A DNA stretch of 64,000 bases from Candidatus Iainarchaeum sp. GTDB lineage: Archaea > Iainarchaeota > Iainarchaeia > Iainarchaeales > VGJJ01. Within the stretch, counting starts at the first letter, position 1, and each line of letters opens with the position of its first letter. The notes under the pieces are model-generated. The model was not told the DNA's origin. It was given only the letters and a program-made list of their open reading frames with translations, and did not search any database. Below are positions 355 through 61,936 of the stretch, one piece after another. Position numbers and translations under genes: made by a program. The DNA lies in contig VGJJ01000001.1 of NCBI GenBank assembly GCA_016867455.1, positions 3,337 to 67,336 on the forward strand, written 5' to 3'.

Positions 355-1860
355 TCAAGTACAGGTGCTTCCCGCGCATGTTTTGAGATACGTTACACGG
401 TTGTGGAATTGTTGAATGAGTGAAGAATAACACGGGTTCGCGTGCTGGCTTTCCAACAAATACGGGTCCCCCACGGGTCGGCATGAATCCGGGGTCAATG
501 CGAATAATTCTTTTTCGTCCACCACCCCATCATTCGTGTAATCGTATTCCGTGTACAAGTATTCTCGTCCCGTGGACACGTTATAGGTTCGCAGTCCGCG
601 ATAATAATTCACGAGAGGGTTTTCCGTGAGAATATCTGAACGCCAAGACGTGGTTCCGGTTGGATTAGTCAACAAAGGAACAAGCGAGCGGCCGTCTTGC
701 AGCAACCCGGGAGTAGCGGATGCCCATTCCAAAAATGTAGGAGTCAAGTCCACATTCATCACGAGTTCGGGAACAATTTTTCCTTTAGGAATACTTGGTC
801 CACTCATGATTAATGGTACGCGCAAGGATTCATACGCCAAGAATTTTCCACTTTTACGATGCTCTCCCAGCATGAATCCATTATCGCTCGTGAAAACAAC
901 AATGGTGTTGCCATATTGTCCCGTGGCTCGCAGGGTTTGGAGTATTTTTCCCACTCCCTCATCCACGGCTAACAAGCTTTCCATGCGGTGTTCATAATTA
1001 TTTTTTACTTCCGCAATATCTTGCGACGTGAGTGGGGGCAGGTAGCTGATGAAAATAGCTTTGTCGGAGACATCGGCTTCATTAAATGCAGGAGACATGG
1101 GCAATGATGACCCGGACATAAGCCCTTGATGTCTCGGCGCCGCGGGAGGGGGATTGTTTCCCATGCTCAAATCTTCATGCGGCGCTAAATAATCCACTTG
1201 CATGAAGAAGGGTTGATTCTCATACGGTCGCTGCGTCAAATAATCCTGGGCTTGCCGCGTGATTACATCCGTTTGATAATCACTCGCACTCGAACCATAA
1301 GTCACAACATTCGTCCCATCATACACGGAATAATTGTAATACTTGTGCATGTTCCCAAACGTCGTGAACCACTTATTCCATCCCGCAGGGGGAGCATGAT
1401 AGCTTCCACTCGGATCGAGGACAACGTTATACCCATTCATGTATTTTCCCAAGTGCATCGTATAATATCCCGCTTGTCCTAACCATATGGGGAGCGTGTT
1501 CGTGTGATTCAATTTGGCATAGCCTCCCGTGCTTCCTCCATTCGATAACACGGTGTGGTTGTGCGCGTATTGTCCCGTGAGGGTGGTTGCTCGTGAGGGG
1601 CAACATAGAGGGAATGACACGTAGGAGCGGTCAAAATAGGTTCCCCTGCGCATGATGAGTTCGCGCACGTTTTTCATGACCGGCCTTCCGTTGGGAAGTT
1701 TATCAAAAAATGTTTGAAAATCCTGGTCATCCGTGCGAATGAAAACAATGTTAGGCTGCGTCGCCGAGGAAGGGGGTAAACTATTCGCGGATGACACGTT
1801 GGCCAAAATAATAATCGTTAACAATCCCAATCCAATTACCGTATAGAGTGCACGATTCAT
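355..1860 (-). CDS. Sulfatase (arylsulfatase / N-acetylglucosamine-6-sulfatase family), secreted
   Basis: N-terminal signal peptide or TM segment. Cys-type sulfatase signature PLCCPSRATTLTGQY (C-x-P-x-R, the formylglycine site). Length ~500 aa is typical of the family. Confidence 0.85.
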   Translation of the reverse strand: MNRALYTVIGLGLLTIIILANVSSANSLPPSSATQPNIVFIRTDDQDFQTFFDKLPNGRPVMKNVRELIMRRGTYFDRSYVSFPLCCPSRATTLTGQYAHNHTVLSNGGSTGGYAKLNHTNTLPIWLGQAGYYTMHLGKYMNGYNVVLDPSGSYHAPPAGWNKWFTTFGNMHKYYNYSVYDGTNVVTYGSSASDYQTDVITRQAQDYLTQRPYENQPFFMQVDYLAPHEDLSMGNNPPPAAPRHQGLMSGSSLPMSPAFNEADVSDKAIFISYLPPLTSQDIAEVKNNYEHRMESLLAVDEGVGKILQTLRATGQYGNTIVVFTSDNGFMLGEHRKSGKFLAYESLRVPLIMSGPSIPKGKIVPELVMNVDLTPTFLEWASATPGLLQDGRSLVPLLTNPTGTTSWRSDILTENPLVNYYRGLRTYNVSTGREYLYTEYDYTNDGVVDEKELFALTPDSCRPVGDPYLLESQHANPCYSSLIQQFHNRVTYLKTCAGSTCT

Positions 1861-1864
1861 CCCA

Positions 1865-3058
1865 TCACTTCCGTTTGGTCTTCAATTCCCTCATTATTTT
1901 TTGGGCTTCTTTCCTCGCCCACGCGTCCGCGTGCAACACATCCTCAAAGGAAGGGTGTTTGTTATTTTTATGACGCGAAACAACTTCGCGTATGGTGCGT
2001 TGAATATCCAAAAATTCAATTTCATTTTTCAAAAATGATTCCACGCACGTGTCATTGGCTGCGTTTAACACGCAGCAAACGGTTCCTTTTTCTCGCGCCG
2101 CATCTAATCCCATTTGCAAACAATCAAATGTTTTCACGTCCGGTTGTTCGAATGTGAATTGTTTTGCTTTCACAAAATCAAATGGAGGAACGTTGAGTTT
2201 GATATGCGAAGGGTGTGTGAGTGCATACTGTATAGGAATCCTCATGTCGTGATGACCCACTTGGGCCATAATACTTCCGTCTGTGAATTCGACCATGGAG
2301 TGAATAATGGATTGGGGGTGAACCACCACATCAATTTTTTCGGCGGGAATATCATACAGCCACATGGCTTCATTGACTTCAAATCCTTTGTTCATAAGGG
2401 TAGCGGAATCAATCGTAATTTTTCCACCCATTTTCCAGGTGGGGTGGTTCAATGCTTGTTCACGTGTCACGCCTTCCAATTGGTTGAGCGTTTTTCCGCG
2501 GAAGGGGCCGCCGGAGCACGTGATAATGAGTCGCGTGACTTCATTCACGTTTTCTCCTTTCAAGCATTGAAAAATAGCCGAGTGTTCCGAATCAATGGGA
2601 GTCAAATCAATATGGTGTTTTTTTACGAGAGGCATGACGACCGCGCCCGCACTCACGAGCGTTTCCTTGTTGGCAAGTGCAATTTTTTTGCGCGCGTGAA
2701 TGGCTTCAATCGTGGGTTTCATTCCAATATTCCCCACTAATGCTTGAACAATCGTATCCGCGTTTTCCCATCGCGCGGCTTCATTCAATCCAGCGTATCC
2801 GGAAAGGACGTGCACGCTTCCCTTCATTTTTTTCTTCAACGCATCCGCTTTCGTTTCATCCACTAAGCACACGGCTTCAGGACGGTATTGGTGGACTTGT
2901 TTCTCCAATAATTCCATCGAACCATTCGCGGTGAGGACTTTCACACTAAACTCGTTGGGGTGTTGGTCCACAATATCCAATGTTTGCGTACCAATGCTTC
3001 CGGTGCTTCCTAAGATAGCTAATCGTTGATGGGGACGGGAGGGCATGAGCATAATCAT
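1865..3058 (-). CDS. dxr: 1-deoxy-D-xylulose 5-phosphate reductoisomerase (MEP pathway)
   Basis: Motifs LAILGSTGSIGTQTLDIV at the N-terminus, LANKETLV and PIDSEHSAIFQ are hallmark DXR blocks. The true start may be the Met 2 or 4 codons downstream (3052 or 3046). Confidence 0.9.
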   Translation of the reverse strand: MIMLMPSRPHQRLAILGSTGSIGTQTLDIVDQHPNEFSVKVLTANGSMELLEKQVHQYRPEAVCLVDETKADALKKKMKGSVHVLSGYAGLNEAARWENADTIVQALVGNIGMKPTIEAIHARKKIALANKETLVSAGAVVMPLVKKHHIDLTPIDSEHSAIFQCLKGENVNEVTRLIITCSGGPFRGKTLNQLEGVTREQALNHPTWKMGGKITIDSATLMNKGFEVNEAMWLYDIPAEKIDVVVHPQSIIHSMVEFTDGSIMAQVGHHDMRIPIQYALTHPSHIKLNVPPFDFVKAKQFTFEQPDVKTFDCLQMGLDAAREKGTVCCVLNAANDTCVESFLKNEIEFLDIQRTIREVVSRHKNNKHPSFEDVLHADAWARKEAQKIMRELKTKRK

Positions 3059-3210
3059 TCATGGATTGGGTTAAATATCCTCTCCCACCCCCTAAAATGA
3101 AAAAATGATGCATACAATCTACAATTGACGTAATTACCCTTGTTGCGCGTCAAAAATAACGATTGTTTTTTATGCGATTTCCAAATGAAGTAAATCATTC
3201 GACCATTTTT

Positions 3211-3215
3211 GGAGG
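3211..3215 (+). promoter_or_regulatory. Shine-Dalgarno-like GGAGG, 8 nt upstream of the ispH ATG
   Basis: The sequence ggaggattttttcATG is seen directly. It supports ATG 3224 as the start rather than the ORF-track start at 3209. Confidence 0.5.
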
Positions 3216-3223
3216 ATTTTTTC

Positions 3224-4237
3224 ATGAAGATTGAACTCGCTCGCGCCGCTGGTTTTTGTTTTGGAGTCAAACGCAGCGTAAAACTTTCTCATGAGACACT
3301 CGACCAGGGTCCCGCATTCTTGTATGGGATGCCCGTGCACAATCAGCGAGTTGTCCAGAAAATCATTGACCACGGCGGAAAACTCGTGGAAGACAATCCC
3401 TACGCCGCGTCCAAAATTTCTCGCTTTACTCATTTGAATTCCATGGATGAAATTCCGGCAGGAAGCACCGTCCTCATGCGTGCGCACGGTGTTACCGTAC
3501 AAGCATTGGAAAAAGCCAAAGAAAAAGAGTTGAAAATCGTCGACACCACCTGCCCATTCGTGACCATGGTTCACAAGACCGCAAAAGTATTGTTTGATGA
3601 AAAATACCAAGTCATTATTGTGGGCGAACATGGTCATCCGGAAGTGGAAGGAATCAAAAGTTATGCCCCCAACGCGATTGTAGTGGAAAATGCGGAAGAA
3701 GCCAGCAAATTATTCCCGCGAAAAACACAATACTACACGAATGATGAACTCATGAAAGCTAAAACCGACGCGGAAGTAGTGGAAAAATTACATTATCCCG
3801 TGTTAACGAAGATTGGAATTGTTTCCCAAACCACCCAATCAAACGACAATGTGCAAGCCGTGGCCATGGCGGTCATGGGTAAAGCTCGTGAAGTAAGAGT
3901 GTACAACACTATTTGCAATGCCATGCATGAAATGCAGCCCGGTGCGGTGCAGCTTTCCACTCAAGTTAATGTCATGCTCATTATTGGGGGAAGAAATAGT
4001 GGAAACACCAAAAGACAGGCCGAATTGTGCGCGCAGCAGACGAAAACACACTGGATTGAATCCGCGGACGAGTTGAAACCCGAATGGTTTACGAATGTAA
4101 AACACGTGGGAATAGGCGCTGGCGCCAGTACACCGGATGAAGACATTGAAGACGTGATTGCGTGGTTGAAAAAATACGACAAGGAAACGAATCACGTTGA
4201 GAGTGAAATCATCCGCCCTGCGTACGTGGTGCATTGA
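3224..4237 (+). CDS. ispH: 4-hydroxy-3-methylbut-2-enyl diphosphate reductase (IspH/LytB)
   Basis: N-terminus MKIELARAAGFCFGVKRSV is the classic LytB block. Conserved Cys residues and ~340 aa length fit. The stop overlaps the next gene. Confidence 0.9.
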   Translation: MKIELARAAGFCFGVKRSVKLSHETLDQGPAFLYGMPVHNQRVVQKIIDHGGKLVEDNPYAASKISRFTHLNSMDEIPAGSTVLMRAHGVTVQALEKAKEKELKIVDTTCPFVTMVHKTAKVLFDEKYQVIIVGEHGHPEVEGIKSYAPNAIVVENAEEASKLFPRKTQYYTNDELMKAKTDAEVVEKLHYPVLTKIGIVSQTTQSNDNVQAVAMAVMGKAREVRVYNTICNAMHEMQPGAVQLSTQVNVMLIIGGRNSGNTKRQAELCAQQTKTHWIESADELKPEWFTNVKHVGIGAGASTPDEDIEDVIAWLKKYDKETNHVESEIIRPAYVVH

Positions 4238-4251
4238 AGAAGGTAAATTCC

Positions 4252-5142
4252 ATGCCTTCCTCGCTCACTCTTTCTTCTCCCGCTAAACTCACGCTGGTAC
4301 TGGATATTATCCGCAAGCGCGAGGATGGTTATCATGAAGTCGAATTAGTGCTGCAGGAATTGGCCATCCACGACACGATAACCATTGAAGCGCTTCCTCA
4401 TTCCAGTGAAATTATTCTCTCATGCACAGACGCAAGCGTTCCCTTGAATGAGAAAAACTCGTGCCACAAAGCAACCATTCTGATGCAAAATGAATTCGCC
4501 AGCCAAAATCCTGGCAAACCTATTCAGGGAGTGAAAATTCATATTGATAAAAAAATTCCTTCCGCGGGAGGATTAGGTGGGGGAAGTTCTAACTCGGCAA
4601 CGGTTTTGAAAGGGTTGAATGAGTTGTGGCAATTGAACTTGTCCAAGAATGTTCTCAAAAATTTGGGGGCGAAGATTGGTTCCGATGAAGTATTTTTGAT
4701 TGAAGGGGGAACGTGCATTGGTTTAGGTCGCGGAGAAATCGTTGAGCCTATTGAAAAATGTCCGCGTCTTGAACTCGCTATTATTACTCCCCCTGTCAAG
4801 GTTCCTGAGAAAAAAAGTGCGTGGGTATATGGTCATTTTGACGTGAACAAAGTTTCCCATCATTATTCGATACACGAAATGAGGAAAGCCATTCGATCGA
4901 ATGATCCTCAAAAAGTGGCCGAAAAAATGGGGAATGTTTTTGAAACACTTGAACTACTGGAGTACGCGGTCGTGTTTGCCCTCATTGAAGGGTTGAAGCA
5001 AATGTCGGGCGTCCGGACGAGTATGCTCGCCGGCGCCGGACCCACCGTGGTATGCGTGTGCGACTCTCAACGGACGGCGAGTCAAATCATTGAACCTTTC
5101 CGCGCGCGCGGGTGGGTGGCATTTACCACACACACGGTTTAG
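4252..5142 (+). CDS. ispE: 4-diphosphocytidyl-2-C-methyl-D-erythritol kinase (IspE, GHMP kinase)
   Basis: N-terminus SPAKLTLVLDI...EDGYHEVELVLQ matches the IspE family (compare E. coli PAKLNLFLYI...DGYH). GHMP ATP-binding loop IPSAGGLGGGSSNSA is present. ATG 4252 is preferred over the TTG at 4234 that overlaps the ispH stop. Confidence 0.85.
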   Translation: MPSSLTLSSPAKLTLVLDIIRKREDGYHEVELVLQELAIHDTITIEALPHSSEIILSCTDASVPLNEKNSCHKATILMQNEFASQNPGKPIQGVKIHIDKKIPSAGGLGGGSSNSATVLKGLNELWQLNLSKNVLKNLGAKIGSDEVFLIEGGTCIGLGRGEIVEPIEKCPRLELAIITPPVKVPEKKSAWVYGHFDVNKVSHHYSIHEMRKAIRSNDPQKVAEKMGNVFETLELLEYAVVFALIEGLKQMSGVRTSMLAGAGPTVVCVCDSQRTASQIIEPFRARGWVAFTTHTV

Positions 5143-11857: not shown

Positions 11858-11928
11858 GCAGGCCGGTAACCTCCGGCCGCGCAGACAGACTACTATCGAG
11901 GGGTCTTCGACCCCTCACACCGGTTTTT
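11858..11928 (+). ncRNA. Two-hairpin sRNA-like element 'A' (GGCCGG-TAACCT-CCGGCC hairpin, GGGGTCTTCGACCCC hairpin, T5 tail)
   Basis: Two perfect hairpins followed by CACACC and TTTTT. It sits in a divergent intergenic region upstream of rpl44e. It is a paralogue of elements at 22555, 22828, 22895 and 23118. Confidence 0.3.
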
Positions 11929-11952
11929 GATCGAACTTTTGGCAAAAGTTCG
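11924..11952. terminator. AT-rich GATC palindrome TTTTTGATCGAACTTTTGGCAAAAGTTCG (family member)
   Basis: Perfect inverted repeat CGAACTTTT / AAAAGTTCG seen directly. It immediately follows the T-tract of element A. Confidence 0.45.
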
Positions 11953-12002
11953 GGTGGCTTTTTAAGTGTTTTCCATGCGTTTTTCATAGTGCGTGAACCC
12001 GT

Positions 12003-12284
12003 ATGAAGATGCCTAAAACCAAGAAATTATACTGTAAGAAGTGTAATTCTCACACCGAACAAAAACTCAAATTGTTTAAATCCGGCCAAGCCCGCGCCAT
12101 GGCAATAGGAACGCGTCGAAATGTTCGAAAGCACAAGAAAGGTTTTGGTGGAAAGGCCAAGTTTGTGATTAAAGTCAAGAAGCAAACTAAGAAACCCGCT
12201 TTCGTAGCCGAATGCCCCACCTGTAAAAGCAAGCGCTACTACGTCATTCCCAAGCGAATGAAAAAAGTAGATATGGGCGCATAA
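12003..12284 (+). CDS. rpl44e: Ribosomal protein L44e (eL42)
   Basis: MKMPKTKKLYCKKCNSHTEQ...CPTCK. Two CxxC zinc-ribbon pairs. Basic ~93 aa protein specific to archaea and eukaryotes. Confidence 0.85.
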   Translation: MKMPKTKKLYCKKCNSHTEQKLKLFKSGQARAMAIGTRRNVRKHKKGFGGKAKFVIKVKKQTKKPAFVAECPTCKSKRYYVIPKRMKKVDMGA

Positions 12285-12480
12285 TCGGGTTTTGATCAAA
12301 CTTCATGGCATCCCAAAAGGTTTGTCATGCCAGCAAACATTGTTTGCTTGGTTCTCAAAAGTTTGATGGACATGGGCGCATAAGGTCGTTTTTTCCCCAG
12401 GCTTTTTGAAAAAGGCTGGTGGGTATGGGCGCATAAAATTAATTTTAGTGGTATTGAAATTCAACACCACGTCAACTTTT

Positions 12481-17831: not shown

Positions 17832-17997
17832 TCGTCATCCGTGTTTAAATGGATTCTTCCACGAGGAATAGTATATTGGCCTATCGAGCGCAAGCGAAGA
17901 TAGTCCGTCAACCTTTTAGCAAAAGGTTGATCAAAAGAGTGCCTACCACCGCAACGCGGTTGGTAGTCCGTTAGCGTCAACCGATAATGCGGTTGTT

Positions 17998-18080
17998 GCG
18001 GAGTTGGCAGAGCGGTCAAATGCACTGGTCTCGAAAACCAGGGCCTCACGGCTACGAGAGTTCGAATCCCTCACTCCGCG
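17998..18080 (+). tRNA. tRNA-Ser (anticodon CGA), type II with long variable arm
   Basis: Acceptor GCGGAGT/ACTCCGC. Anticodon stem CTGGT/ACCAG with loop CTCGAAA. Variable arm ~14 nt. T-arm GAGAG-TTCGAAT-CCCTC. Discriminator G. No encoded CCA. Confidence 0.8.
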
Positions 18081-18200
18081 CTTCGCGCCATTATCCATCT
18101 GGCGGGTCGGTATAGAGGTATCGCAGCGCGATACCTCGGCTGAACGTTTCTTTTTGACCGCGCACCACTTTTTCTCACTCAAAGAAAAAGGGGCGCTTCT

Positions 18201-18217
18201 GAATCCCTCACTCCGCG
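18201..18217 (+). repeat. Exact 17-nt copy of the tRNA-Ser 3' end (GAATCCCTCACTCCGCG), 120 nt downstream of the gene
   Basis: Identical to 18064..18080, seen directly. It follows an AT-rich palindrome CTTTTTCTCACTCAAAGAAAAAGG (18168-18191). Confidence 0.7.
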
Positions 18218-18253: not shown

Positions 18254-18595
18254 CTAATCGTCTTCTACTTCTATTTTTAGTCCGCCCACCATTTTGGCGA
18301 CGGCGTTATACACTAATGCAACGAGTGCGCCGGAAATGAATCCGGTGACAATTCCTAAAACCAAGAAAAATAACAATCCAATGAATCCCAATTGCTGCGT
18401 TTTCTCTATCAAATCAATGGGAGTGCCGGAGAGTGTTTGCAAGTATCCCGATACAATTCCCGATGTGAGTAAGGAAAGTATTCCCATGAGCAGTCCCATC
18501 ACGAATCCAAAGATGGCATTTACTTTTCCCAGCATGAGGGGGTCGACGTGATGGATGGTTAATCGTTTGCTCGTCATGCGCAACACCGCATTCAT
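18254..18595 (-). CDS. Small membrane protein (3 TM), hypothetical
   Basis: Hydrophobic helices with an acidic C-terminus EVEDD. Confidence 0.45.
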   Translation of the reverse strand: MNAVLRMTSKRLTIHHVDPLMLGKVNAIFGFVMGLLMGILSLLTSGIVSGYLQTLSGTPIDLIEKTQQLGFIGLLFFLVLGIVTGFISGALVALVYNAVAKMVGGLKIEVEDD

Positions 18596-18663
18596 TAGTC
18601 CAAAAATCGGGTGTTAATAAAGGTGAGTGCACGTGGGAAAGAATTTCTGTCGAAAACGACTCA

Positions 18664-18990
18664 TTATGCTTCCGCAAAAGCAGAACATTTTTCTAGTTTT
18701 TTCGTGAGTTGAGTGAAGAGCTTTTTGGCATCCTTTTCCACGTTCAGGTTTTTGAACAAAAATCTCCCGGAGGGGTATAAACTCACGCGTATTCCTTGGA
18801 AATGAAACACTAATACAAAAGCCGTTTTCACATCAAACATTAATCCTTCGTCCGCAAGTTGATTCCCCAATGTTGTGAGATTTAGTTTCAAGTTTGGTTG
18901 CGTGAAAAATTCGTATGAGACGTTGGATTCGCATAGCCTTCCTTGGTAGTATTTTCGAGACATTTTTTCACGACACTGATTATTTTTCAA
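18664..18990 (-). CDS. Small hypothetical protein, 18 nt downstream of the large ATPase gene on the same strand
   Basis: ORF with a basic, helical C-terminus. No motif recognised. Confidence 0.4.
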   Translation of the reverse strand: MKNNQCREKMSRKYYQGRLCESNVSYEFFTQPNLKLNLTTLGNQLADEGLMFDVKTAFVLVFHFQGIRVSLYPSGRFLFKNLNVEKDAKKLFTQLTKKLEKCSAFAEA

Positions 18991-19008
18991 TGAATTTTTG
19001 CAACACGA

Positions 19009-22000
19009 TTATTCATTCAGAATAGTTCCCGTGTATCCGTCCATTTTCACGATGCGGTGTTCGCCCGTTTTCGTGTTAATTAATAATCCTTCAAACAAGG
19101 GTCGATAAATTTCTTTCACGGTATTCACCACTACATTCGGCCACAAATTAGTAAGGAGTGCGTGGAGTTGTTCTTCGGAATATTTTGGAATGGATTTGGC
19201 AATGTTTGTCACGTGCACGAGTTTGAGTGCTTGCAATGAAGATAATTGCTTCTCCCCTCCCGAGAAGGGGATGTCCAAGTCCTTTGCAATGACAAATGTG
19301 GGGAGCGTGTTTTCGTTCAACACGCGAATCATTCCTCGATCACGCAGTTTGACGAGAGAGCGCTTCACGGTCTTTTCATCTAGTCCTGTTTTCTTTTGGA
19401 GGTTGGCAATGGTTTGTCCCCCCATGCGTATCATGCGTAAAACGTGCTGGTCATTCGTGGAGAGTCCGGCCAGTGCTTGCAACCCATTCGATGTCACGAA
19501 TTGGTTGTTCAAGTAATGCAAAAATTCTCCTTTTTCGGCGTCAATGAAGCATTCTCGTACGACATAGGATGTTTTTCCGGTGAATTGCCGGTATTGGACT
19601 TTCCATATGGGAACATACGATAGAGTGACTTCTTTGAGTTGCTCGGCGGGTTTTCCTATTCCTAATAATGTTTTTTTGCTTGCTTTCAAAAATCGTTGAA
19701 CGATTTCCTCACGTGAATACGGAACGGGGAATGCGGACAAGTCCGTGTCCTCATTTATAGAGGGAAGTTCGACGAGTTTAGCGAGGTTTTCAACTTTTTG
19801 CACCGCGGCTAACTCGGCTTCGGGCAATGGTTGAGTGTGCTTATCTTTTTCTTTTTTGGAAATGACTTCCACAAAGTTGGGGGATTTTACGGCTTCTGTT
19901 TTCGGGTCGATGCGTGCTCCGCGTGCTTCCATTTCGTCTAATATACTAGATAGGAGCATTTTTTGTCCGTATTTTTGGTTGAGCATTCCCATGACTTGTT
20001 CAATCGTTTCCTTATCTAACATTCCTTCTTTTTCTAATTTGGACATGAGTAAGGATACACACAGCATGCGGGCTTCTTTTTCGCTCATGGATTTTTTACG
20101 CTCTCCCGTTTCCGCATCCCTTCCTTCGTGTTGGGACATGCGTGGACGAATTTTGAGTACGAATGCGCGGTTGGTTTCCTCGCGGCGGTCTCCCACGAGA
20201 GCCGTTCCCACGGGGAGCGTTTTCAAAAAGTGGGGGTGTTTGTATTTCATGGGAATAATGGTTGGCGTGCGTTTGGTTACGGCTTTAATGTCATCATCAA
20301 AAATGAGTTTGTGCGAGAGAATAATATCCAATTGACTCAAAACACGGGTGTCAATCGCGGATGGTTGCTGCGTGGCAAACACGAGTGAACAGCCTGGTCG
20401 GCGTCCCTGCTTTACGTATTCAACAATTGCTGTCGTCGCAGGAGTAGAAACATTCCCCCCCGGAATGAGGGTGTGGGCTTCATCAATGAACAACCACGTG
20501 GGAGGGATTTCGTTTTCCATGAGACTCTCAACGGATTTTTCCATGGGTTCGTTCGCGGCTTCTTTGCGTGTTTGAATTTTTCGCGCCGCCAAAAGTCTTC
20601 GTGCGAGAATTCCAATAACGAGTGCAGTCACCGTGTCATCCAAAAAACTCGTGTCAATAACCGTGAGTTGTCCCGCGCGGGATATTTCACTTAATGGGGT
20701 TCCTTTGTCAGAGAATATTCCCCATCCCTTGGCGGCTTCAAATCGTGAAACGAGGGCGCGCACACTGTCTGTTTTGTATCCTTTTTCTTTGGAATTTAAT
20801 TCGGTATCATTTTCTAAGCACGCAACGAGTTCGTTGAGCGTGTACGCGTCTTTTTTTCCTTTGATGGTTTCTCCGCCAGTACTGCGATATCCTTTTTCTA
20901 ATTTCTTGAGGGCTTTTTCTAATAGTAATCCCGTGGGAGAGAATCGTTCAATTCCAAATGTTAGACACCAATCCTCACTCGTGAGTAGTGAAGGGGGAAC
21001 GGAGAATAATGCATCATACGTTGAGCGGGGGGTTTCGCTTTTCATTCCTTCGGGGATGAACACGCGCATGTTTTCTAACCCTTGCGGCATGAGTTCATAG
21101 TGCGGGAGTTCTTTCACTTCTTTTTCTTCCTTGTTGGGATAGCGCATGGACCAGAATACTCCCACGGGGTCAACCACTACAATTCCCACGTTCGTGTTGT
21201 GCAATGCTAATTCTTCCGCGAGCACTCCTAACAAGTATGATTTTCCGCTTCCGCGTGAACCGCATGTGAAAATAACATGTGGGTTGAGTGAGTCCACGTA
21301 CAATTTGAAGGCGCGATAACGCTCATCATCTTGTACTTTTCCCACGTACAACGCGCCATCCAATCCTGATTTTTGCATGACGCTGCGTTTTCGTCCAATG
21401 AAAATGGCTTTCTTTTTTTCATCTTCTAATAAGGATAATTTGAGCACGCTCGCGGGTTCCTCTAATGCATGTCCTCTTGTTTTGAGTAAAATGTTTTGTT
21501 TGATTTGTTCACGTGAAACCGCATGCTCATCCACTCCCTCCACGGGTTCAATGGGTGGACGCTCAACGAGAGTATGTTTGGCAGAAACTCCTTCGGAATG
21601 AATTCCTTCTTCTTGGATCCCATGTTCAAACAAAAAATCATCTTCATCCATGGGGGGCATTTCTCCTTCTTCTACGGACGAGGAATGAGCCGAGGCGCGC
21701 GTATCTTCGTGTGAGTGTGTTTCCATTTCTTCTTCGCTTTCACTTGTTGCGCGTCCTTTCTTTTTGCGCAAGGGAATCATGCGTGAATTTTCTTCCGTGT
21801 CGGCAGACAAATCATCGTCCAAATTTGTGCGTTTTTCTTCGTCGTTGTTTGGTGGAGTTTCTTCCCCTTTTTCTTCAGCATCCCCTTCGCGCTCCACATC
21901 TTGCATAATCTTATCAAAGGGGTCCTGGTGCCCTTTTTCCACGTGAACACGGGGCTTTTTTTCTTCACTCATGGGTGGAACTACGTTTTTGGACTTATAA

Positions 22001-22065
22001 TCCTTGTCCACCCCTCCCAACACCCATAAAAACAAGGAATGGGTTCCTTTCTCGTGAAAAAGCAC
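19009..22065 (-). CDS. Very large HerA/FtsK-superfamily (DUF87-type) P-loop ATPase with acidic N-terminal region and C-terminal winged-helix-like domain
   Basis: Walker A FTCGSRGSGKSY. Walker B LFIDEAH. FtsK/HerA/VirB4-type motif LVFATQQPSAID. About 230-aa acidic, low-complexity N-terminus. C-terminal LRMIRMGGQTIANLQKKTGL...LVKLRDRGMI resembles a wHTH fold. Confidence 0.75.
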   Translation of the reverse strand: MLFHEKGTHSLFLWVLGGVDKDYKSKNVVPPMSEEKKPRVHVEKGHQDPFDKIMQDVEREGDAEEKGEETPPNNDEEKRTNLDDDLSADTEENSRMIPLRKKKGRATSESEEEMETHSHEDTRASAHSSSVEEGEMPPMDEDDFLFEHGIQEEGIHSEGVSAKHTLVERPPIEPVEGVDEHAVSREQIKQNILLKTRGHALEEPASVLKLSLLEDEKKKAIFIGRKRSVMQKSGLDGALYVGKVQDDERYRAFKLYVDSLNPHVIFTCGSRGSGKSYLLGVLAEELALHNTNVGIVVVDPVGVFWSMRYPNKEEKEVKELPHYELMPQGLENMRVFIPEGMKSETPRSTYDALFSVPPSLLTSEDWCLTFGIERFSPTGLLLEKALKKLEKGYRSTGGETIKGKKDAYTLNELVACLENDTELNSKEKGYKTDSVRALVSRFEAAKGWGIFSDKGTPLSEISRAGQLTVIDTSFLDDTVTALVIGILARRLLAARKIQTRKEAANEPMEKSVESLMENEIPPTWLFIDEAHTLIPGGNVSTPATTAIVEYVKQGRRPGCSLVFATQQPSAIDTRVLSQLDIILSHKLIFDDDIKAVTKRTPTIIPMKYKHPHFLKTLPVGTALVGDRREETNRAFVLKIRPRMSQHEGRDAETGERKKSMSEKEARMLCVSLLMSKLEKEGMLDKETIEQVMGMLNQKYGQKMLLSSILDEMEARGARIDPKTEAVKSPNFVEVISKKEKDKHTQPLPEAELAAVQKVENLAKLVELPSINEDTDLSAFPVPYSREEIVQRFLKASKKTLLGIGKPAEQLKEVTLSYVPIWKVQYRQFTGKTSYVVRECFIDAEKGEFLHYLNNQFVTSNGLQALAGLSTNDQHVLRMIRMGGQTIANLQKKTGLDEKTVKRSLVKLRDRGMIRVLNENTLPTFVIAKDLDIPFSGGEKQLSSLQALKLVHVTNIAKSIPKYSEEQLHALLTNLWPNVVVNTVKEIYRPLFEGLLINTKTGEHRIVKMDGYTGTILNE

Positions 22066-22140
22066 CCCAGACCCTCATCACAATCCCCTCGTGCGTCCCC
22101 CGCACATGCTCATACGACTGCGCATCACACGCATTCTCCC

Positions 22141-22518
22141 ATGTTTTATGCGTGGGAATTGATTACACTATCCTGCGTCTTCTTTGTTGCCGAAGCATTT
22201 TTTGGACACCCCTTCATTCACGTGGATACGGAAACCGAACACATCCTCGAACTCGCCGTGGAAGGGGCGGAAGTCATTCTCATTGCCGAAGTCGCATTAT
22301 TATTAATCGTCGCACGCGACAAAGTTTCTCATATCAAACGAAATTGGTGCAATATCCTCGCGGTTGCTCCCGCGGGGGGAAGTTTACGCATAGTTACCAT
22401 CATTAAAATTACCTGGCACGCTTTTGAAAAAACACGATTGGGTCACTTTTTCAAACACCCCATTCAATACTCGCGGCGCTGGATACGGGTAAAATTAGGC
22501 CTCCGTCCCCTGGCTTGA
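22141..22518 (+). CDS. Possible small membrane protein (low confidence), divergent from the ATPase gene
   Basis: The only clean ORF in a ~470-nt gap. Two predicted hydrophobic helices. No homology recognised, and it could be non-coding. Confidence 0.25.
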   Translation: MFYAWELITLSCVFFVAEAFFGHPFIHVDTETEHILELAVEGAEVILIAEVALLLIVARDKVSHIKRNWCNILAVAPAGGSLRIVTIIKITWHAFEKTRLGHFFKHPIQYSRRWIRVKLGLRPLA

Positions 22519-22554
22519 ACCGTTTTTAAACGCACCCACTCAAGAATGATATAC

Positions 22555-22625
22555 CAGGCCAGTTTCGGCTGGCCGCAGCGAGAGACTACTTATAAGGGAT
22601 TGCACGCAATCCCTTGAGGTAGGCT
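22555..22625 (+). ncRNA. Two-hairpin sRNA-like element 'B' (GGCCAG-TTTCGG-CTGGCC; AAGGGATTGCACGCAATCCCTT; T4 tail)
   Basis: Same architecture as element A, with compensatory changes in the stems. Confidence 0.3.
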
Positions 22626-22652
22626 TTTGATCAAACTTTTTCAAAAAGTTTG
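22625..22652. terminator. GATC palindrome TTTTGATCAAACTTTTTCAAAAAGTTTG abutting the tRNA-Ala 5' end
   Basis: Perfect 10-bp arms CAAACTTTTT / AAAAAGTTTG. The last G is nucleotide 1 of the tRNA. Confidence 0.45.
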
Positions 22653-22723
22653 GGCAAGTAGCGCAACGGTAGCGCGTCCGCTTCGCATGCGGGAGGCTGG
22701 GGGTTCGAATCCCCCCTTGTCCA
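22652..22723 (+). tRNA. tRNA-Ala (anticodon CGC) with the G3:U70 identity pair
   Basis: Acceptor GGGCAAG/CTTGTCC (position 3 G pairs with T). D-arm GCGC-AACGGTA-GCGC. Anticodon loop TTCGCAT. T-arm GGGGG-TTCGAAT-CCCCC. Discriminator A. No encoded CCA. Confidence 0.85.
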
Positions 22724-22832
22724 TCGCCCATTCCGTAGGGCGAATCCGGTATAGTGGGATAGCAGAGCTATCCCACGTCTTTTGATCAAACTTTTAGAAA
22801 AAGTTTGTTTGATTTCCCCCTTGTCCATGGCC
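22712..22832 (+). repeat. 121-nt direct repeat, copy 1: tRNA-Ala 3' end + conserved two-hairpin trailer + GATC palindrome + second copy of the tRNA 3' end CCCCCTTGTCCA
   Basis: Identical to 23001..23121, compared base by base. Internal hairpins CGCCC-ATTCCGTA-GGGCG and GTGGGATAGC-AGAG-CTATCCCAC. Confidence 0.8.
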
Positions 22833-22870
22833 TGTTTCGGAACCCTTTAGTAAAGGGTTCATCGAAATTT
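22828..22870 (+). ncRNA. Two-hairpin sRNA-like element 'E' (degenerate first hairpin; AACCCTT-TAGTA-AAGGGTT; T4 tail)
   Basis: It follows the second copy of the tRNA-Ala 3' end and is followed by the palindrome at 22868-22895. Confidence 0.25.
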
Positions 22871-22894
22871 TGATCGAACTTTTTTCAAAAGTTC

Positions 22895-22950
22895 GGCAGG
22901 CCGCCTCGAGAAACGGGTTATCGTTTCACGATAACCCCTATTTTTCTTTT
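22895..22950 (+). ncRNA. Two-hairpin sRNA-like element 'C' (GGCAGGCCGCC...; GGGTTATCG-TTTCA-CGATAACCC; T5 tail)
   Basis: Same family. Followed by the palindrome CTTTTCTTTTATCAAAAGAAAAGG (22963-22986). Confidence 0.25.
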
Positions 22951-23000
22951 GACTCCGAATTACTTTTCTTTTATCAAAAGAAAAGGAACTCTTCTGATTT

Positions 23001-23121
23001 CCCCCTTGTCCATCGCCCATTCCGTAGGGCGAATCCGGTATAGTGGGATAGCAGAGCTATCCCACGTCTTTTGATCAAACTTTTAGAAAAAGTTTGTTTG
23101 ATTTCCCCCTTGTCCATGGCC
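23001..23121 (+). repeat. 121-nt direct repeat, copy 2 (lacks the 5' two-thirds of the tRNA)
   Basis: Identical to 22712..22832. Preceded by CTTCTGA, as is the tRNA-Ser 3' copy. Confidence 0.8.
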
Positions 23122-23183
23122 GCTAACCTGCGGCCGTGCGGAAGTTAGGGAAACATGAATGTTCCCTAGACAAACTATTTTTC
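23118..23183 (+). ncRNA. Two-hairpin sRNA-like element 'D' (GGCCGC-TAACCT-GCGGCC; AGGGAAACAT-GAA-TGTTCCCT; ACA; T5 tail)
   Basis: Closest relative of element A: same TAACCT loop, and an ACA triplet after hairpin 2. Confidence 0.3.
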
Positions 23184-23199
23184 GCCAACCATTTTTATA

Positions 23200-23778
23200 G
23201 TGCAATTCACTCGTACACGCATGCATTTCCCTATTCGCTTGCTCATTGGTCTTGTTTTCTTGGTGATGATTTCACCAACGATTTTTGCGGCAGATGTTTA
23301 CATTCTTCGCGCTATCACAGTCCCCCAAACGTATTTGACGGGATATGTGGATGTGGAGATTACGATTGAAAATGTGCAATTCAATCAACAAGGATATGGT
23401 GCTGCATCCTCGGGCAATCAATTGATCCATACCTCGATTCGAAATGACAAAGGGCAATTTCTCCCAGGTTTTGATGACTATCAAACATCTATCCCATTGC
23501 CCGCCGCAATAAATGTGATCAACGTGACAATTCCCCAATCTTCATTGAACGCGGGGGAAATATACACTATTCAAGCGAGTATTGATCCATACAATCCAAA
23601 TGGAACAACATACGATGAAACCACTAAAGGAAATAATTCCGCACGCAAGACATTTACCGTATTAAAAGCTCCGCAAACGTATCAAGTTCCCGACATGCCA
23701 TTCGAATTATCCTTCGCGGGCATGTTGCTCGTGTTGAGCGGATTATTTTATTATGGTCGAGTGAAAAAAAATAATTAA
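23200..23778 (+). CDS. Secreted protein with signal peptide and C-terminal TM anchor plus basic tail
   Basis: Signal peptide MHFPIRLLIGLVFLVMISPTIFA. C-terminal FAGMLLVLSGLFYYGRVKKNN. Several N-x-S/T sequons. Confidence 0.55.
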   Translation: MQFTRTRMHFPIRLLIGLVFLVMISPTIFAADVYILRAITVPQTYLTGYVDVEITIENVQFNQQGYGAASSGNQLIHTSIRNDKGQFLPGFDDYQTSIPLPAAINVINVTIPQSSLNAGEIYTIQASIDPYNPNGTTYDETTKGNNSARKTFTVLKAPQTYQVPDMPFELSFAGMLLVLSGLFYYGRVKKNN

Positions 23779-23832
23779 TTATCTCGACCAAGCAAAATTA
23801 AACTAACTAATTTTCTTGCCGGTTCTGCCAAA

Positions 23833-23861
23833 CAAACTTTTTAGAAAAAGTTTGATCAAAA
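23833..23861. terminator. GATC palindrome in reverse orientation (CAAACTTTTTAGAAAAAGTTTGATCAAAAA) at the 3' ends of convergent genes (secreted protein and ferredoxin)
   Basis: Perfect inverted repeat with flanking T- and A-runs. It lies between convergent genes. Confidence 0.45.
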
Positions 23862-23864
23862 ATA

Positions 23865-24143
23865 CTAAATAATTTTCTTGCCAGTTTTGTCAAACAAGTG
23901 AATCACATTCACGGGGCAAGAGTCCGCGGCTTCCTTGTTGGGAGTATACTGTGCTTGGGCAATGTCTCTTTGTTCACCATCTTCTCCGCTTTCGAGTTTG
24001 ATGTGAATGGATCCCTTCAAGTTGCTCTTTCCATCCACGGGGGACATTTCCCAATAATCCGGTGCCACGGCTGCGCAGGCCCCGCATCCAATACAATTGG
24101 GTCGGTCGTGTTTGATTTGATAGTCGGGCATAGGATATTCCAC
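23865..24143 (-). CDS. Small [4Fe-4S] ferredoxin
   Basis: CIGCGACAAVAP...CPV cluster-binding pattern (CxxCxxC...CP). 92 aa. Confidence 0.7.
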   Translation of the reverse strand: MEYPMPDYQIKHDRPNCIGCGACAAVAPDYWEMSPVDGKSNLKGSIHIKLESGEDGEQRDIAQAQYTPNKEAADSCPVNVIHLFDKTGKKII

Positions 24144-24290
24144 CTCAATTCGGAATGGTTATACTAAAAACGCGCAAAAAGTAATTTTAAAGGTATAGGA
24201 ACAAATCACGAAAATCCCTCCCATTAGCGAAATTACGGGCGTTTATGTTTTCAGTTTATAACGGTTTTCCGACCGTGATTGTAGTGAAAT

Positions 24291-59621: not shown

Positions 59622-60203
59622 TCACTTTTTGCGCGCAACAAAAACCATGTCCTCTTTCAGGGAAAAAGGCACGAGTTGATGGATTATCTTTCGTATGGGA
59701 AAAAACCATTTGTTTCGAGCCCCATCCGATGATTCTTCCGTGAACGGAAATAATTCCACGCGCTCAACCAGAAACCCGTTTCTTTCAAGCAAATTTTTCA
59801 GCGAGGGAATGTCAAAAAGGGAAAGGTGGAGGGGCATTTCATACGAGTGAGTAAGACGGTTGAGCCAGCTTTTCTTGTTCGGGGTTGAAAGTGCCAGCAC
59901 GCCATTTTTTTGGAGAACACGCGCACACTCCTGGATGAAACGCTCGGGTTGGGGAACGTGTTCGATTACTTCCCCCGCGAGTATCCCATCAAACGAGTTA
60001 TCGCGGAATGGCATTTGTTGACCATCCCCAATGACTTGATTCGTGCGCACGTGGATGAGCTCGATGTCTAATGAAATAATTTTTGGAGGAGAGTGGCGCG
60101 CGAGCAAATCCTCATGCAGTGTTCCCGCACTCCCGCCCACATCAAGTATTTTTCCAGCAAGGGGAGTCAGTAATGCTTCGACGCGCGTCCTCATGAATAT
60201 CAC
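59622..60203 (-). CDS. SAM-dependent methyltransferase
   Basis: ILDVGGSAGTL motif I. Methyltransf_11-like. Confidence 0.75.
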   Translation of the reverse strand: MIFMRTRVEALLTPLAGKILDVGGSAGTLHEDLLARHSPPKIISLDIELIHVRTNQVIGDGQQMPFRDNSFDGILAGEVIEHVPQPERFIQECARVLQKNGVLALSTPNKKSWLNRLTHSYEMPLHLSLFDIPSLKNLLERNGFLVERVELFPFTEESSDGARNKWFFPIRKIIHQLVPFSLKEDMVFVARKK

Positions 60204-60943
60204 CCTAGTTTTCCGGCGTGAATACTTTTCCAGTTTTTTACTACTTCATTGGCACGCGTCAACTCATCAATGGTTCCCGCATCCAACCATTCGCCGGATA
60301 ATTTACTCGCCGCGAGTGCATTCCGTGAAATGTATTGATTATGAATGTCGGTTATTTCAAGCTCTCCCCTCTGTGAAGGTTTGAGGGTTCGAATAATATC
60401 GAACACGCCGGGGTTGAACATATACACTCCGATGCTCACCCAATTCGTGGGGGGATCTTTTGGTTTTTCGATTAATTTAGTGACGCGCTCTCCCTCCATG
60501 ACGGCAACTCCTGCTTTCATGGCTTCTTCTCGTGTCGTCTCATACAATAAAATGCGCGCGTCTTCTTTTCCGTGGGCAAATGCATCCATGAATGGTTTAA
60601 TGGAGTGCGACAAAATATTGTCTCCATTTACTGAAACGAATTTTTCTTTTCCAACAAATCCTTCGGCCAATGCAATGGCGTGCGGCAATCCTCCCGCGGT
60701 GTCTTGTACGCGATACGTGAAATGCACTCCGAAGTCTTTTCCGCTTCCCATGAGTTTGAAAATATTTCCCGCATGTTCGGTTCCCGTGATGATTAGTATT
60801 TCCGTTATTCCTGCTTCCTTGAGGGTTTGCAACGGATAATAAATCATGGGCCTATCATAAATGGGAAGTAAATGTTTGTTGGTCACGGAAGTCAATGGTC
60901 GCAGTCGCGTGCCATTTCCTCCAGCAAGAATAACGCCTTTCAT
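60200..60943 (-). CDS. rmlA: Glucose-1-phosphate thymidylyltransferase (short archaeal form)
   Basis: MKGVILAGGNGTRLRPLT...NKHLLPIYDRPMIYYP. Start at ATG 60943, immediately after the stop of the upstream gene. The ORF-track N-terminal extension is unsupported. Confidence 0.85.
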   Translation of the reverse strand: MKGVILAGGNGTRLRPLTSVTNKHLLPIYDRPMIYYPLQTLKEAGITEILIITGTEHAGNIFKLMGSGKDFGVHFTYRVQDTAGGLPHAIALAEGFVGKEKFVSVNGDNILSHSIKPFMDAFAHGKEDARILLYETTREEAMKAGVAVMEGERVTKLIEKPKDPPTNWVSIGVYMFNPGVFDIIRTLKPSQRGELEITDIHNQYISRNALAASKLSGEWLDAGTIDELTRANEVVKNWKSIHAGKLG

Positions 60944-60944
60944 T

Positions 60945-61928
60945 TTAGTTGCCTCCTTTTGGTAAAAAATACTCATGATACCATGGAACCGTTTCACGCA
61001 ATCCTTTTTCAAGCGAATAATTGGGAGACCATCCCAATAATTCTTGCGTGGAACGAATGTCAAGCACGGGGTGATCACGGTCATCAAATGGTCGATTATC
61101 AAACGAAATTTGGGTGGGAAAAGGCATTGTTTTCTGGACAATTTCAGCAATCTGGCGAATAGTCGACAGGTTTCCGGACGCAAAAGTGACTGCCTTTCCA
61201 TTGACGGATTTGGAATGACAGTTCTCGGCTAAGCGAATCATTCCATTTACTGCATCCTGCACATACAAAAAGTCCCGCTTGATTTTTCCATCACCTTTTA
61301 GGGTGATTGTTTTTTTCGTAAAAAGTTCTTTCATCATAATAGGTATGAGTCGATTAAAGTTCGTGTCATTGGGGCCATAAATATTTGTATTCTGCGCGAT
61401 GGCTCCATTCATTCCATATGCGTGAAAATAACTTCGTGCAATAACTTGCGTGCAAAACTTGCTGGCATCATACGGATGAAGGGGCGCCATGACATCTGTT
61501 TTGTTGCTGGACAATGGTTCGAATGCTCTCACCGATCCGGCTAGTATTAGGGGTGTTTGTTCCTTTTTTGCGCGGAGTGCATCCAATAAGAAAAGAGTGC
61601 CATTCACATTGCTTTCAAATGTTTCCACTGGAATTTGGATTGATTTCCACGTGTCCGATTGCGATGCTAAGTGAAAAATGAAATCAAACGCGTGGGTGTT
61701 AACTAATTGTTGTACACTCTCGCGCGAACGCAATTCAAGGGGGTGCACCTTAATCGTTTTTCCGGGGAATAAACGGTCTAAATAAGGAGTATTTTTGGGA
61801 GATCGGCTCGCGCCCTCAATGATGGCTCCCTGCTGAAGCAATTCGTTGGCGAGGTGGGAGCCGATAAAGCCATTTATCCCCGTGATTAGGACTCGCTTCC
61901 CTGACCAATTAGTCGTTCGCATACGCAT
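60945..61928 (-). CDS. NAD-dependent sugar-nucleotide epimerase/dehydratase (extended SDR)
   Basis: VLITGINGFIGSHLANELL Rossmann motif. 327 aa. Confidence 0.75.
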   Translation of the reverse strand: MRMRTTNWSGKRVLITGINGFIGSHLANELLQQGAIIEGASRSPKNTPYLDRLFPGKTIKVHPLELRSRESVQQLVNTHAFDFIFHLASQSDTWKSIQIPVETFESNVNGTLFLLDALRAKKEQTPLILAGSVRAFEPLSSNKTDVMAPLHPYDASKFCTQVIARSYFHAYGMNGAIAQNTNIYGPNDTNFNRLIPIMMKELFTKKTITLKGDGKIKRDFLYVQDAVNGMIRLAENCHSKSVNGKAVTFASGNLSTIRQIAEIVQKTMPFPTQISFDNRPFDDRDHPVLDIRSTQELLGWSPNYSLEKGLRETVPWYHEYFLPKGGN

Positions 61929-61936
61929 CTTTGCTC

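Follow-up and report, generated by a model that had tools for sequence, protein, structure and literature searches.

Hairpin inserts between duplicated gene ends in a Candidatus Iainarchaeum genome point to undescribed mobile-element behaviour

A stretch of 64,000 nucleotides (nt) from Candidatus Iainarchaeum sp. (contig VGJJ01000001.1, assembly GCA_016867455.1), here called the window, carries a tRNA-Ala(CGC) gene which is followed by three partial copies of its own 3' end. The copies are separated by non-coding inserts built from strong hairpins. The same footprint was found at three other genes of the window, those for tRNA-Ser(CGA), ribosomal protein L44e and a ferredoxin, and at tRNA genes of other tiny-genome microbes. 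This points to a mobile-element behaviour which has not yet been described.

The tRNA-Ala gene and the repeats of its 3' end

The tRNA-Ala gene was identified by ARAGORN (22651-22725) and by Rfam (22652-22723, 68.9 bits). Its body of 72 nt starts with GGGCAAG and ends with TTGTCCA (GGGCAAG...CTTGTCCA). A sequence-only reading of the window had claimed that a core of the 3' end, CCCCCTTGTCCA, is present at four sites, that a 121-nt unit recurs exactly downstream without a tRNA body, and that this unit consists of the core, two hairpins, a palindrome and a second core. All three statements were borne out. The core starts at 22712, 22816, 23001 and 23105, always on the plus strand; 0.22 copies are expected and none of 100 shuffled sequences contained four. 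Over 121 nt, 22712-22832 is identical to 23001-23121 at a spacing of 289 nt. If two mismatches (22709 and 22711) are allowed, the repeat is 126 nt long. Within the unit the two hairpins are followed by the palindrome TTGATCAA with an AT hairpin and by the second core (Table 1). The 'GATC palindrome' of the sequence-only reading is thus present, yet it is not a local feature: it is part of a hairpin motif, termed P below, which is widespread in archaea and bacteria.

The copies of the tRNA-Ala end are real, with one refinement. The three downstream pseudo-copies (T2, T3, T4) share 19 nt, TGATTTCCCCCTTGTCCAT (22810-22828, 22995-23013 and 23099-23117), and all three differ from the real end (T1) at positions 59 and 61. 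The pseudo-copies have U59 and U61, which breaks the G53-C61 pair, and one complete tRNA-Ala is already present. The inner flank TGATTT is also common to all three. The insert between T1 and T2, Ea, returns without any change between T3 and T4. T2 and T3 are separated by a different insert, Eb, whose P2 module and the 3' part of the tRNA-Ser insert are homologous. The loop of the first Eb hairpin has received a nested insertion with a TCGG duplication of 4-5 nt. At the other end of the gene sits a three-hairpin element, and the last G of its P motif is position 1 of tRNA-Ala.

Between the array and the ferredoxin gene an open reading frame (ORF) of 192 amino acids was observed (23200-23778). 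It has an N-terminal hydrophobic segment and no Pfam hit. Inward-facing P motifs lie on both sides of it, and behind each comes a pseudo-copy of a gene end, T4 to the left and the ferredoxin copy to the right. The ORF is missing from the same interval in the related contig L003.

Table 1. Genes, hairpin inserts and gene-end copies in the window. z, folding relative to shuffled sequences; hp, hairpin.
Feature	Position	Strand	Remarks
Y-type three-hairpin element, L44e promoter region	11858-11953	+	hairpin A 11861-11878; hairpin B 11900-11914; P 11925-11952
L44e gene (Pfam Ribosomal_L44)	12003-12284		
L44e gene end ATGGGCGCATAA, three copies	12273-12284; 12372-12383; 12425-12436	+	last 12 nt, stop codon included; inserts of 87 nt (P motif, hairpins nested in its loop) and 41 nt (P-like hairpin 12397-12419)
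Three-hairpin element upstream of tRNA-Ser	17909-17997	-	points away from tRNA-Ser; P 17909-17936 (-)
tRNA-Ser(CGA), insert and copy	17998-18217	+	gene 17998-18080; z = -5.25; insert of 120 nt with X-type hairpins and P2 variant 18152-18201; 17-nt end GAATCCCTCACTCCGCG at 18064-18080 and 18201-18217
Y-type three-hairpin element at exact 5' end of tRNA-Ala	22553-22651	+	z = -7.8 as single-stranded DNA; hairpin A 22557-22574; TTATAA; hairpin B 22596-22613; P motif 22625-22652
tRNA-Ala(CGC), functional gene	22652-22723	+	last 16 nt AATCCCCCCTTGTCCA (22708-22723) = copy T1
Insert Ea, copy 1	22724-22811	+	three perfect hairpins, z = -9.15; X module (hp1 22725-22742, GGTATAG, hp2 22754-22776) and P' 22780-22807, the palindrome and AT hairpin of the 121-nt unit
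T2, pseudo-copy of tRNA-Ala 3' end	22812-22827	+	ATTTCCCCCTTGTCCA; U59 and U61
Insert Eb, Y-type	22828-22996	+	z = -7.2 and -4.5; hairpin A (GGCCTG...CAGGCC) with nested insertion in its loop (hairpin 22840-22860 and P'' 22868-22895); hairpin B 22915-22937; P2 variant 22947-22996, terminal CTTCTG
T3, pseudo-copy of tRNA-Ala 3' end	22997-23012	+	
Insert Ea, copy 2 (X and P')	23013-23100	+	identical to copy 1, inside the exact 121-nt repeat
T4, pseudo-copy of tRNA-Ala 3' end	23101-23116	+	
Flank F, degenerate Y-type (Eb-type) remnant	23117-~23190	+	hairpin A 23118-23135; hairpin B 23148-23166; degenerate P-like stretch
Ferredoxin gene	23865-24143	-	
Ferredoxin gene end, P, diverged copy	23864-23897; 23833-23861; 23802-23835	-	copy of 34 nt, 30/34 identical
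P motif, positions in window	11925-11952; 17909-17936(-); 22625-22652; 22780-22807; 22868-22895; 23069-23096; 23833-23861(-)		

The footprint at other genes, in relatives and in other lineages

The sequence-only reading had concentrated on tRNA-Ala. That locus is as described, but the footprint is not specific for tRNAs. Behind the tRNA-Ser, L44e and ferredoxin genes their own last 12-34 nt recur once or twice. The inserts between the copies are 28-169 nt long, contain no ORF and fold strongly; as single strands they have z-values of -2.9 to -9.2 compared to shuffles. The modules which they have in common are X (GGTATAG with a GC hairpin on either side), Y, and P, a 28-nt motif consisting of TTTTGATC and an AT-rich hairpin (CTTTT..AAAAG core with a covarying outer stem). 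P occurs eight times in the window (1.03 expected). A P-family hairpin precedes all seven window pseudo-copies at a gap of 0-11 nt (elsewhere up to 14 nt). X is used behind tRNA-Ser as well and was found in both orientations relative to the gene. Hairpin mosaics occupy the window at 11.8-12.5, 17.9-18.2 and 22.5-23.2 kb, and seven junctions at four unrelated targets lie inside 12 kb. The element in the L44e promoter region is flanked by imperfect copies of the TATA-like TTTTTAAG. As the nested insertions demonstrate, hairpin loops are themselves targeted.

The duplications follow a pattern. The exact lengths range from 12 to 23 nt; 31 and 34 nt are outliers. In tRNA genes the inner edge lies in DNA coding for the T-loop or the D-loop, and on this inner side a pseudo-copy often keeps imperfect similarity to the gene for a few more nt. 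No known mechanism fully explains why the duplications begin in T-/D-loop DNA and end at the gene terminus.

Next we consider the relatives. The closest named homologs of the L44e protein are from 'Candidatus Diapherotrites archaeon'; relatives identified by CTP synthase are uncultured archaeal metagenome-assembled genomes, and P is absent from the six closest CTP-synthase loci. Contig L178 is syntenic with the window and its L44e is 87% identical. It carries an identical tRNA-Ala gene without hairpin element, P motif or extra copies. The end of tRNA-Ser is not duplicated in L178, where a P-like hairpin alone is located 12 nt downstream of this gene, and the L44e gene of L178 has neither the duplicated end nor the promoter-region element. 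Similarly, in L179 tRNA-Ser and L44e are without duplicated end or insert, and the L44e promoter-region element is absent. In L003 the ferredoxin gene has no P and no copy. The tRNA-Ala gene of L003 carries the two-hairpin X module only, with no duplication; here hairpin 1 plus AATCCGGTAT is identical to the window, and hairpin 2 has compensatory substitutions. The 5' Y-type element is lacking in L003, which has a TATA-like TTTTTAAA 26-33 nt upstream of its tRNA-Ala. In the window the native TATA box has been pushed away by this element, which has a TATA-like TTATAA of its own, about 60 nt upstream of the tRNA.

A different filling was observed in L180, a contig from another sample with an L44e 95% identical to that of the window. 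At the L44e stop codon a reversed X lies between two 21-nt copies of the gene end; then follow a P shared with the window and a decayed third copy. The gene-attached copy ends with TAG, as in L178, the displaced copy with TAA, as in the window. The element in the L44e promoter region has the outer junctions of the window and a different interior. The L44e site was struck repeatedly and independently. Empty sites in distant relatives together with different fills in close ones favour insertion over a conserved processing element, the two outcomes between which the sequence-only reading had wanted a comparison of empty and filled sites to decide.

Further features of these contigs are recorded here. 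In L003 (~2540-3470) and L005 (~880-1800) a LAGLIDADG-type ORF is located directly upstream of tRNA-Gln; the window has plain spacer at this place (24150-24290). L179 codes for a DHH-family protein with an intein containing a LAGLIDADG domain (1759-4761). In the window, 1865-5142 holds bacterial-type genes of the methylerythritol phosphate pathway (1-deoxy-D-xylulose 5-phosphate reductoisomerase, LytB/IspH and a GHMP kinase, maybe IspE) in an archaeon of the DPANN group (Diapherotrites, Parvarchaeota, Aenigmarchaeota, Nanoarchaeota, Nanohaloarchaeota); they are kept in L178. The block from tRNA-Ser to tRNA-Ala (18254-22518) contains a HerA/DUF87 ATPase of 1018 amino acids with a weakly sigma-70 region 4-like C-terminus and small ORFs (DUF3566). 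It looks plasmid- or virus-like, yet is conserved in L178 (12870-16691). Numerous glycosyltransferase, sugar epimerase/dehydratase and methyltransferase genes and three B12-binding radical SAM genes, which form a long series at 35600-60200, probably constitute a surface-glycan cluster.

The P motif extends far beyond this lineage. An exact-pattern scan returned at least 117 metagenome contigs and 3 viral contigs (L055-L174) with 128 sites, from gut, rumen, termite, digester, sediment and lake samples. The hosts include archaea (L5e-type ribosomal protein, L141) and bacteria (GidB, L068; sigma-54 activator, L100). Among the matches listed both variable stem positions are complementary in 123 of 128 sites, compared to 25% by chance. 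Of the listed sites 17.6% lie between direct repeats of 11 nt or longer, compared to 2.5% of control positions; 82% of the listed sites are without an adjacent gene copy. In many bacterial contigs P is followed by two GC-rich hairpins (GGGGTC..GCCCC.., ..TCCGCAGA..). No protein family recurs beside P: 426 ORFs near the 128 sites formed no cluster of more than 3 loci. The bacterial-type P module had no BLAST match in plasmid and phage collections, and a full-text literature search with the motif string returned nothing relevant. Module X is more restricted. A loose scan (GGTATR plus hairpin) yielded mostly noise, and real X copies were seen in the window, L003 and L161 only. In all, four distinct X sequences were obtained. 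Three matches of X hairpin 1 in viral contigs were all dismissed as chance, being inside coding DNA of 61-65% GC.

Contig L161 has the design of the window: the 5' 23 nt of its tRNA-Gly are duplicated across an X+P element and the 3' end is duplicated twice. The design was also found at tRNA-Pro (L160), tRNA-Thr (L135), tRNA-Gln (L116), two tRNAs of L062 and a tRNA of L148, and ends of protein genes are duplicated in L086 and L109. In L109 (~4030-4190; also L073, L158 and L142, all rumen-type bacterial contigs) a protein gene (…RNFIKNHF*) has its last ~33 nt in duplicate, with P 2 nt behind each copy, a bacterial counterpart of the L44e and ferredoxin arrangements. In L116 (~860-925, minus-strand orientation) a 44-nt insert separates the duplicated tRNA-Gln 5' end from the gene; within it the 5' sequence of this tRNA recurs in inverted form as GTACACTACGG, so the leader can pair with the 5' strand of the tRNA. 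In L114 (632-792) an archaeal tRNA (Rfam 36.7 bits) has an 80-nt anticodon-loop intron made of two P-type hairpins, so these modules are at home in tRNA introns as well. A control set was picked via CTP synthase, independent of P. Here three bacteria of the candidate phyla radiation (CPR) had the same footprint with hairpin inserts of 46-73 nt, without P: in L020 (Wirthbacteria) 23 nt of tRNA-Arg from the T-loop to CCA are duplicated across a 73-nt insert, in L042 (Woesebacteria) the last 19 nt of tRNA-Lys and in L028 (Paceibacterota) the 5' 13 nt of tRNA-Lys.

How the arrays may have been formed

On balance we lean towards the view that each of the four tRNA-Ala 3' ends is a junction repeat, the trace of serial insertion of trans-mobilised, non-coding hairpin elements at the end of the gene and of subsequent local recombination. 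The elements would be members of a genome-wide family built from the modules X, Y and P. As they encode nothing, they must be moved in trans. We infer an integrase-like activity encoded elsewhere which makes a staggered cut, one nick at the gene terminus and the other 12-21 nt inside, in T-loop DNA or, at 5' ends, in D-loop DNA. The element would be joined and gap repair would duplicate the segment T in between. The gene would be kept intact and a pseudo-copy pushed outward. At tRNA-Ala the most economical history would comprise at least three steps. Ea (X+P') may have inserted first, giving T1-Ea-Tpsi. Unequal recombination between T copies would then have duplicated the Ea-Tpsi unit, yielding the exact 121-nt repeat, and finally Eb would have entered a pseudo-copy. 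That T2 and T3 are identical over 19 nt and have the same two differences from the real tRNA would follow because Eb split a pseudo-copy. In a separate event a piece consisting of a hairpin and P'' may have landed in the first hairpin loop of Eb. Nested or serial insertion of a MITE-like (miniature inverted-repeat transposable element) sequence of ~100 nt, mobilised in trans, had been among the proposals of the sequence-only reading; it is supported by the empty sites (L178, L179 and the L003 ferredoxin gene), the filling in L180, the reuse of modules in either orientation and the nested insertion.

A number of observations weigh against this proposal. Pfam searches of the window ORFs from 355 to 60203 (8 ORFs hitless; 60200-63792 not run) returned no integrase, transposase, Cas1, PolB or reverse transcriptase. 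For these ORFs the statement of the sequence-only reading that no integrase gene is present therefore holds; the window covers 64 kb of the source genome, so the search for a trans-acting enzyme was confined to it. The outer edge of the duplication coincides within ±1 nt with the gene terminus at nearly all tRNA ends inspected, 5' and 3', and with the stop codons of L44e and ferredoxin; exceptions are the T2/T3 pair of L161, 5 nt further, and the protein gene of L086, 7 nt before the stop. A plain staggered cut combined with selection would not predict this. The length of the duplications varies from 12 to 34 nt, unlike that produced by a single ruler-type integrase. Pseudo-copies differ from the gene mainly at the inner edge, a pattern more in line with recombination involving an imperfect incoming copy than with fill-in repair. 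In none of the seven inserts does terminal inverted identity exceed shuffle level, i.e. terminal inverted repeats (TIRs) are absent. The ends of the inserts are not sharply conserved (X begins 1, 3 or 7 nt before its first hairpin), and some insertions have no duplication at all, such as X in L003 and the three-hairpin element between -1 and +1 of tRNA-Ala. Lastly, the number of copies of the 121-nt repeat is taken from a single assembly, that of the window.

Several of these points would be expected if no enzyme had been involved, a possible but rather doubtful alternative. Replication template switching or homology-facilitated illegitimate recombination could duplicate a gene end when a nascent strand which has stalled where a highly expressed gene ends, or DNA imported from a relative and anchored in a conserved gene, copies or brings in a hairpin segment and rejoins at short imperfect homology a few nt inside the gene. 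The outer edge of T would then merely be the place where conserved gene sequence stops; imprecise insert ends, missing TIRs and insertions without duplication would be accounted for. The targets (tRNAs, L44e, ferredoxin) are all highly expressed or conserved, the footprint is present in CPR and DPANN lineages, the microhomology of 4-5 nt at the nested insertion fits, and imperfect similarity is seen just inside T2 (GTTTGATTTCC versus GTTCGAATCC; AAAAGTTTGAT versus AAAAAGTAGAT). The TAG and TAA stops of the attached and displaced copies in L180 agree as well. However, illegitimate joins should scatter along the gene, whereas T lengths cluster at 12-23 nt with inner edges in T-/D-loop DNA. The conservation of P across domains with its covarying stem argues for a dedicated recognition factor, and one outer boundary was reused in three independent L44e events. 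The common differences of T2, T3 and T4 from T1 do not fit either, nor does the displaced ferredoxin copy, in which 3 of 4 changes are non-synonymous, unlike a functional allele. That the array is an assembly artefact, a repeat mis-resolved, over-collapsed or over-expanded, is very improbable. Logan contigs of the same run (SRR7052762) match the window at 100% identity and break off within the 121-nt repeat, 30 nt from either of its ends, and the count of loop traversals has no independent confirmation. Yet a k=31 graph breaks exactly there, k-1 nt inside, at a true two-copy repeat with two entries and two exits, and, given these contigs, the reads must contain Eb, the segment of 169 nt which separates the copies. 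The triple L44e copy (L176) and the downstream tRNA-Ser copy each lie within a single Logan contig at 100% identity; part of the L44e locus is present, again 100% identical, in a Joint Genome Institute contig from another sample (L177), and many unrelated assemblies have the same architecture.

The repeats might instead be attL/attR scars, as the sequence-only reading had also considered. Plasmids or viruses carrying a tRNA 3' part would have integrated in tandem into the T-loop region via a tyrosine recombinase and later been deleted down to the att-proximal arms, or tiny att circles would have used an integrase encoded elsewhere. We regard this as unlikely. The footprint itself stands: at all four window targets the inserts lie between direct repeats taken from the 3' part of the target gene, and a repeat which begins in the T-loop, stops precisely where the gene ends and has imperfect homology on its inner side is the classical signature of tRNA-targeting integrases. 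In elements of this type the tRNA 3' part is repeated from a loop to the gene end, the gene stays intact, the partial copy is displaced and tandem integrations occur; archaea often have a partial tRNA copy as attR (PMC9897764). It is known that one att site can be occupied in tandem, and the TGATTT flank of the three pseudo-copies looks as if it came from attP. What does not stand is the kind of insert. Integrase elements measure kilobases, bear an integrase and use one att per integrase, and known archaeal copies are 9-23 kb apart with repeats of about 44 bp (PMC9897764). Here, inserts of 28-169 nt without coding remnant form seven junctions in 12 kb; the same modules, X in both orientations and P, flank four unrelated 'att' sequences; both tRNA ends are used, no T-stem-like half-site precedes the pseudo-copies, and the window ORFs searched gave no integrase hit. 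A functional RNA or regulatory cassette has even less in its favour and is a quite remote prospect. It could be a 3'-processing or termination trailer, an outward promoter (GGTATAG or TTATAA) or a hairpin-plus-guide RNA with its protein elsewhere, in which P would precede a stretch of 12-20 nt with the same sequence as the end of the gene next to it. The identical X hairpin 1 and the compensatory changes of hairpin 2 in L003, the covarying P stem, the P-family hairpin before 7/7 window pseudo-copies and the 5' element which replaced the native TATA position and brought TTATAA would agree with this. It is contradicted by the empty sites at tRNA-Ala, tRNA-Ser and L44e of L178 and at tRNA-Ser and L44e of L179; in particular the novel tRNA-trailer RNA of the sequence-only reading is at odds with L178, where the identical tRNA-Ala lacks a trailer. 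Further, the pseudo-copies are altered at conserved tRNA positions, most listed P sites have no gene copy beside them, no protein family recurs next to the listed sites, and one L180 pseudo-copy follows an X hairpin instead of P. Rfam at gathering and E-value thresholds reported only tRNAs in the window and in 20 P-bearing loci, and by eye no convincing C/D-box, H/ACA or split-tRNA features were seen in the trailer.

Some other candidates were considered. A CRISPR array would have 16-19 nt of a tRNA as repeats and structured 'spacers', one of them duplicated, and the window has no cas genes. The logic of IS200/IS605 insertion sequences or TnpB (TTGAT target, hairpin ends, guide after the right end), integron attC, Xer/dif-type sites and target-primed reverse transcription would each fit one or two features (hairpins, a constant 3' end with variable 5' extent, variable duplication length), none of them all data.

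Relation to known mobile elements and significance

The footprint comes closest to that of casposons, but casposon membership fails. Casposons insert at the 3' end of a tRNA or protein gene and duplicate a target segment of 14-15 bp there (35 bp in one family); this target includes the T-psi-C region, and repeated use of a site creates tandem arrays separated by the duplicated segment (PMC5137440, PMC4779613). Location at gene ends and such arrays are both present here. However, casposons are multi-kb elements with Cas1, PolB and TIRs, whereas these inserts of 28-169 nt are non-coding and TIR-less. Moreover, the casposon duplication lies mostly downstream of the tRNA (5 bp overlap in A. boonei) and has a fixed length; here it reaches from inside the gene to its terminus and measures 12, 13, 16-19, 17, 21 or 34 nt.

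MITEs are likewise small, non-coding, multi-copy inserts which depend on an enzyme encoded elsewhere. They have TIRs and short fixed duplications of 2-10 bp (PMC11602168), unlike the TIR-less inserts with duplications of 12-34 nt described here. With repetitive extragenic palindromic sequences (REPs) and the bacterial interspersed mosaic elements (BIMEs), P has in common a short conserved 5' motif in front of a covarying palindrome, intergenic mosaics and a lineage-specific copy number. The adjacent duplication of 12-34 nt of a gene end sets it apart; we know of no REP with such a duplication and of no REP motif shared by bacteria and archaea. REPs go with a cognate RAYT (HUH) transposase in the genome, whereas beside P no protein family recurs in the 120 loci listed. 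Mobile hairpins of organelles, the GC clusters of yeast mitochondria and the double-hairpin elements of fungi, are also small and hairpin-only, and invade intergenic DNA, gene ends and hairpins. The likeness is one of description: hosts and sequences are different and their duplications are very short.

The individual pieces thus resemble known things: REP/BIME-like mosaics, a MITE-like lack of autonomy and an att- or casposon-like duplication of gene ends. For the combination, i.e. TIR-less, hairpin-only inserts with terminus-bound duplications of 12-34 nt at both tRNA ends and at protein genes, in stacks and with a motif crossing domains, no description was found in the literature searched. 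Tentatively, the elements may represent a new class: trans-mobilised, hairpin-only mini-elements of streamlined DPANN archaea, CPR and other bacteria, which integrate at the ends of tRNA and highly expressed genes. TTTTGATC and its hairpin would then be the recognition site of a putative integrase (Cas1-like, HUH-like or reverse-transcriptase based), the segment from the tRNA loop to the gene terminus would be duplicated, and stacks like CRISPR or casposon arrays would result.

The P motif, which is present in archaea and bacteria and has a covarying stem and no known partner protein, is itself a lead. For practical work it matters that short-read assemblies break at the extra tRNA ends and hairpins and that these are at risk of being mis-annotated as att sites, tRNA fragments or small RNAs. 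The elements also re-wire expression signals, as at tRNA-Ala, where one insertion shifted the TATA box by about 100 nt. Formally, stacks of gene end, insert and gene end are like casposon and CRISPR arrays, although made of non-coding hairpins, and may open a window on the origin of repeat-spacer architectures. If these are indeed mobile elements, they would show how tiny genomes with almost no intergenic DNA tolerate selfish DNA: insertion at the exact end of a gene regenerates that end and, therefore, nothing is broken.

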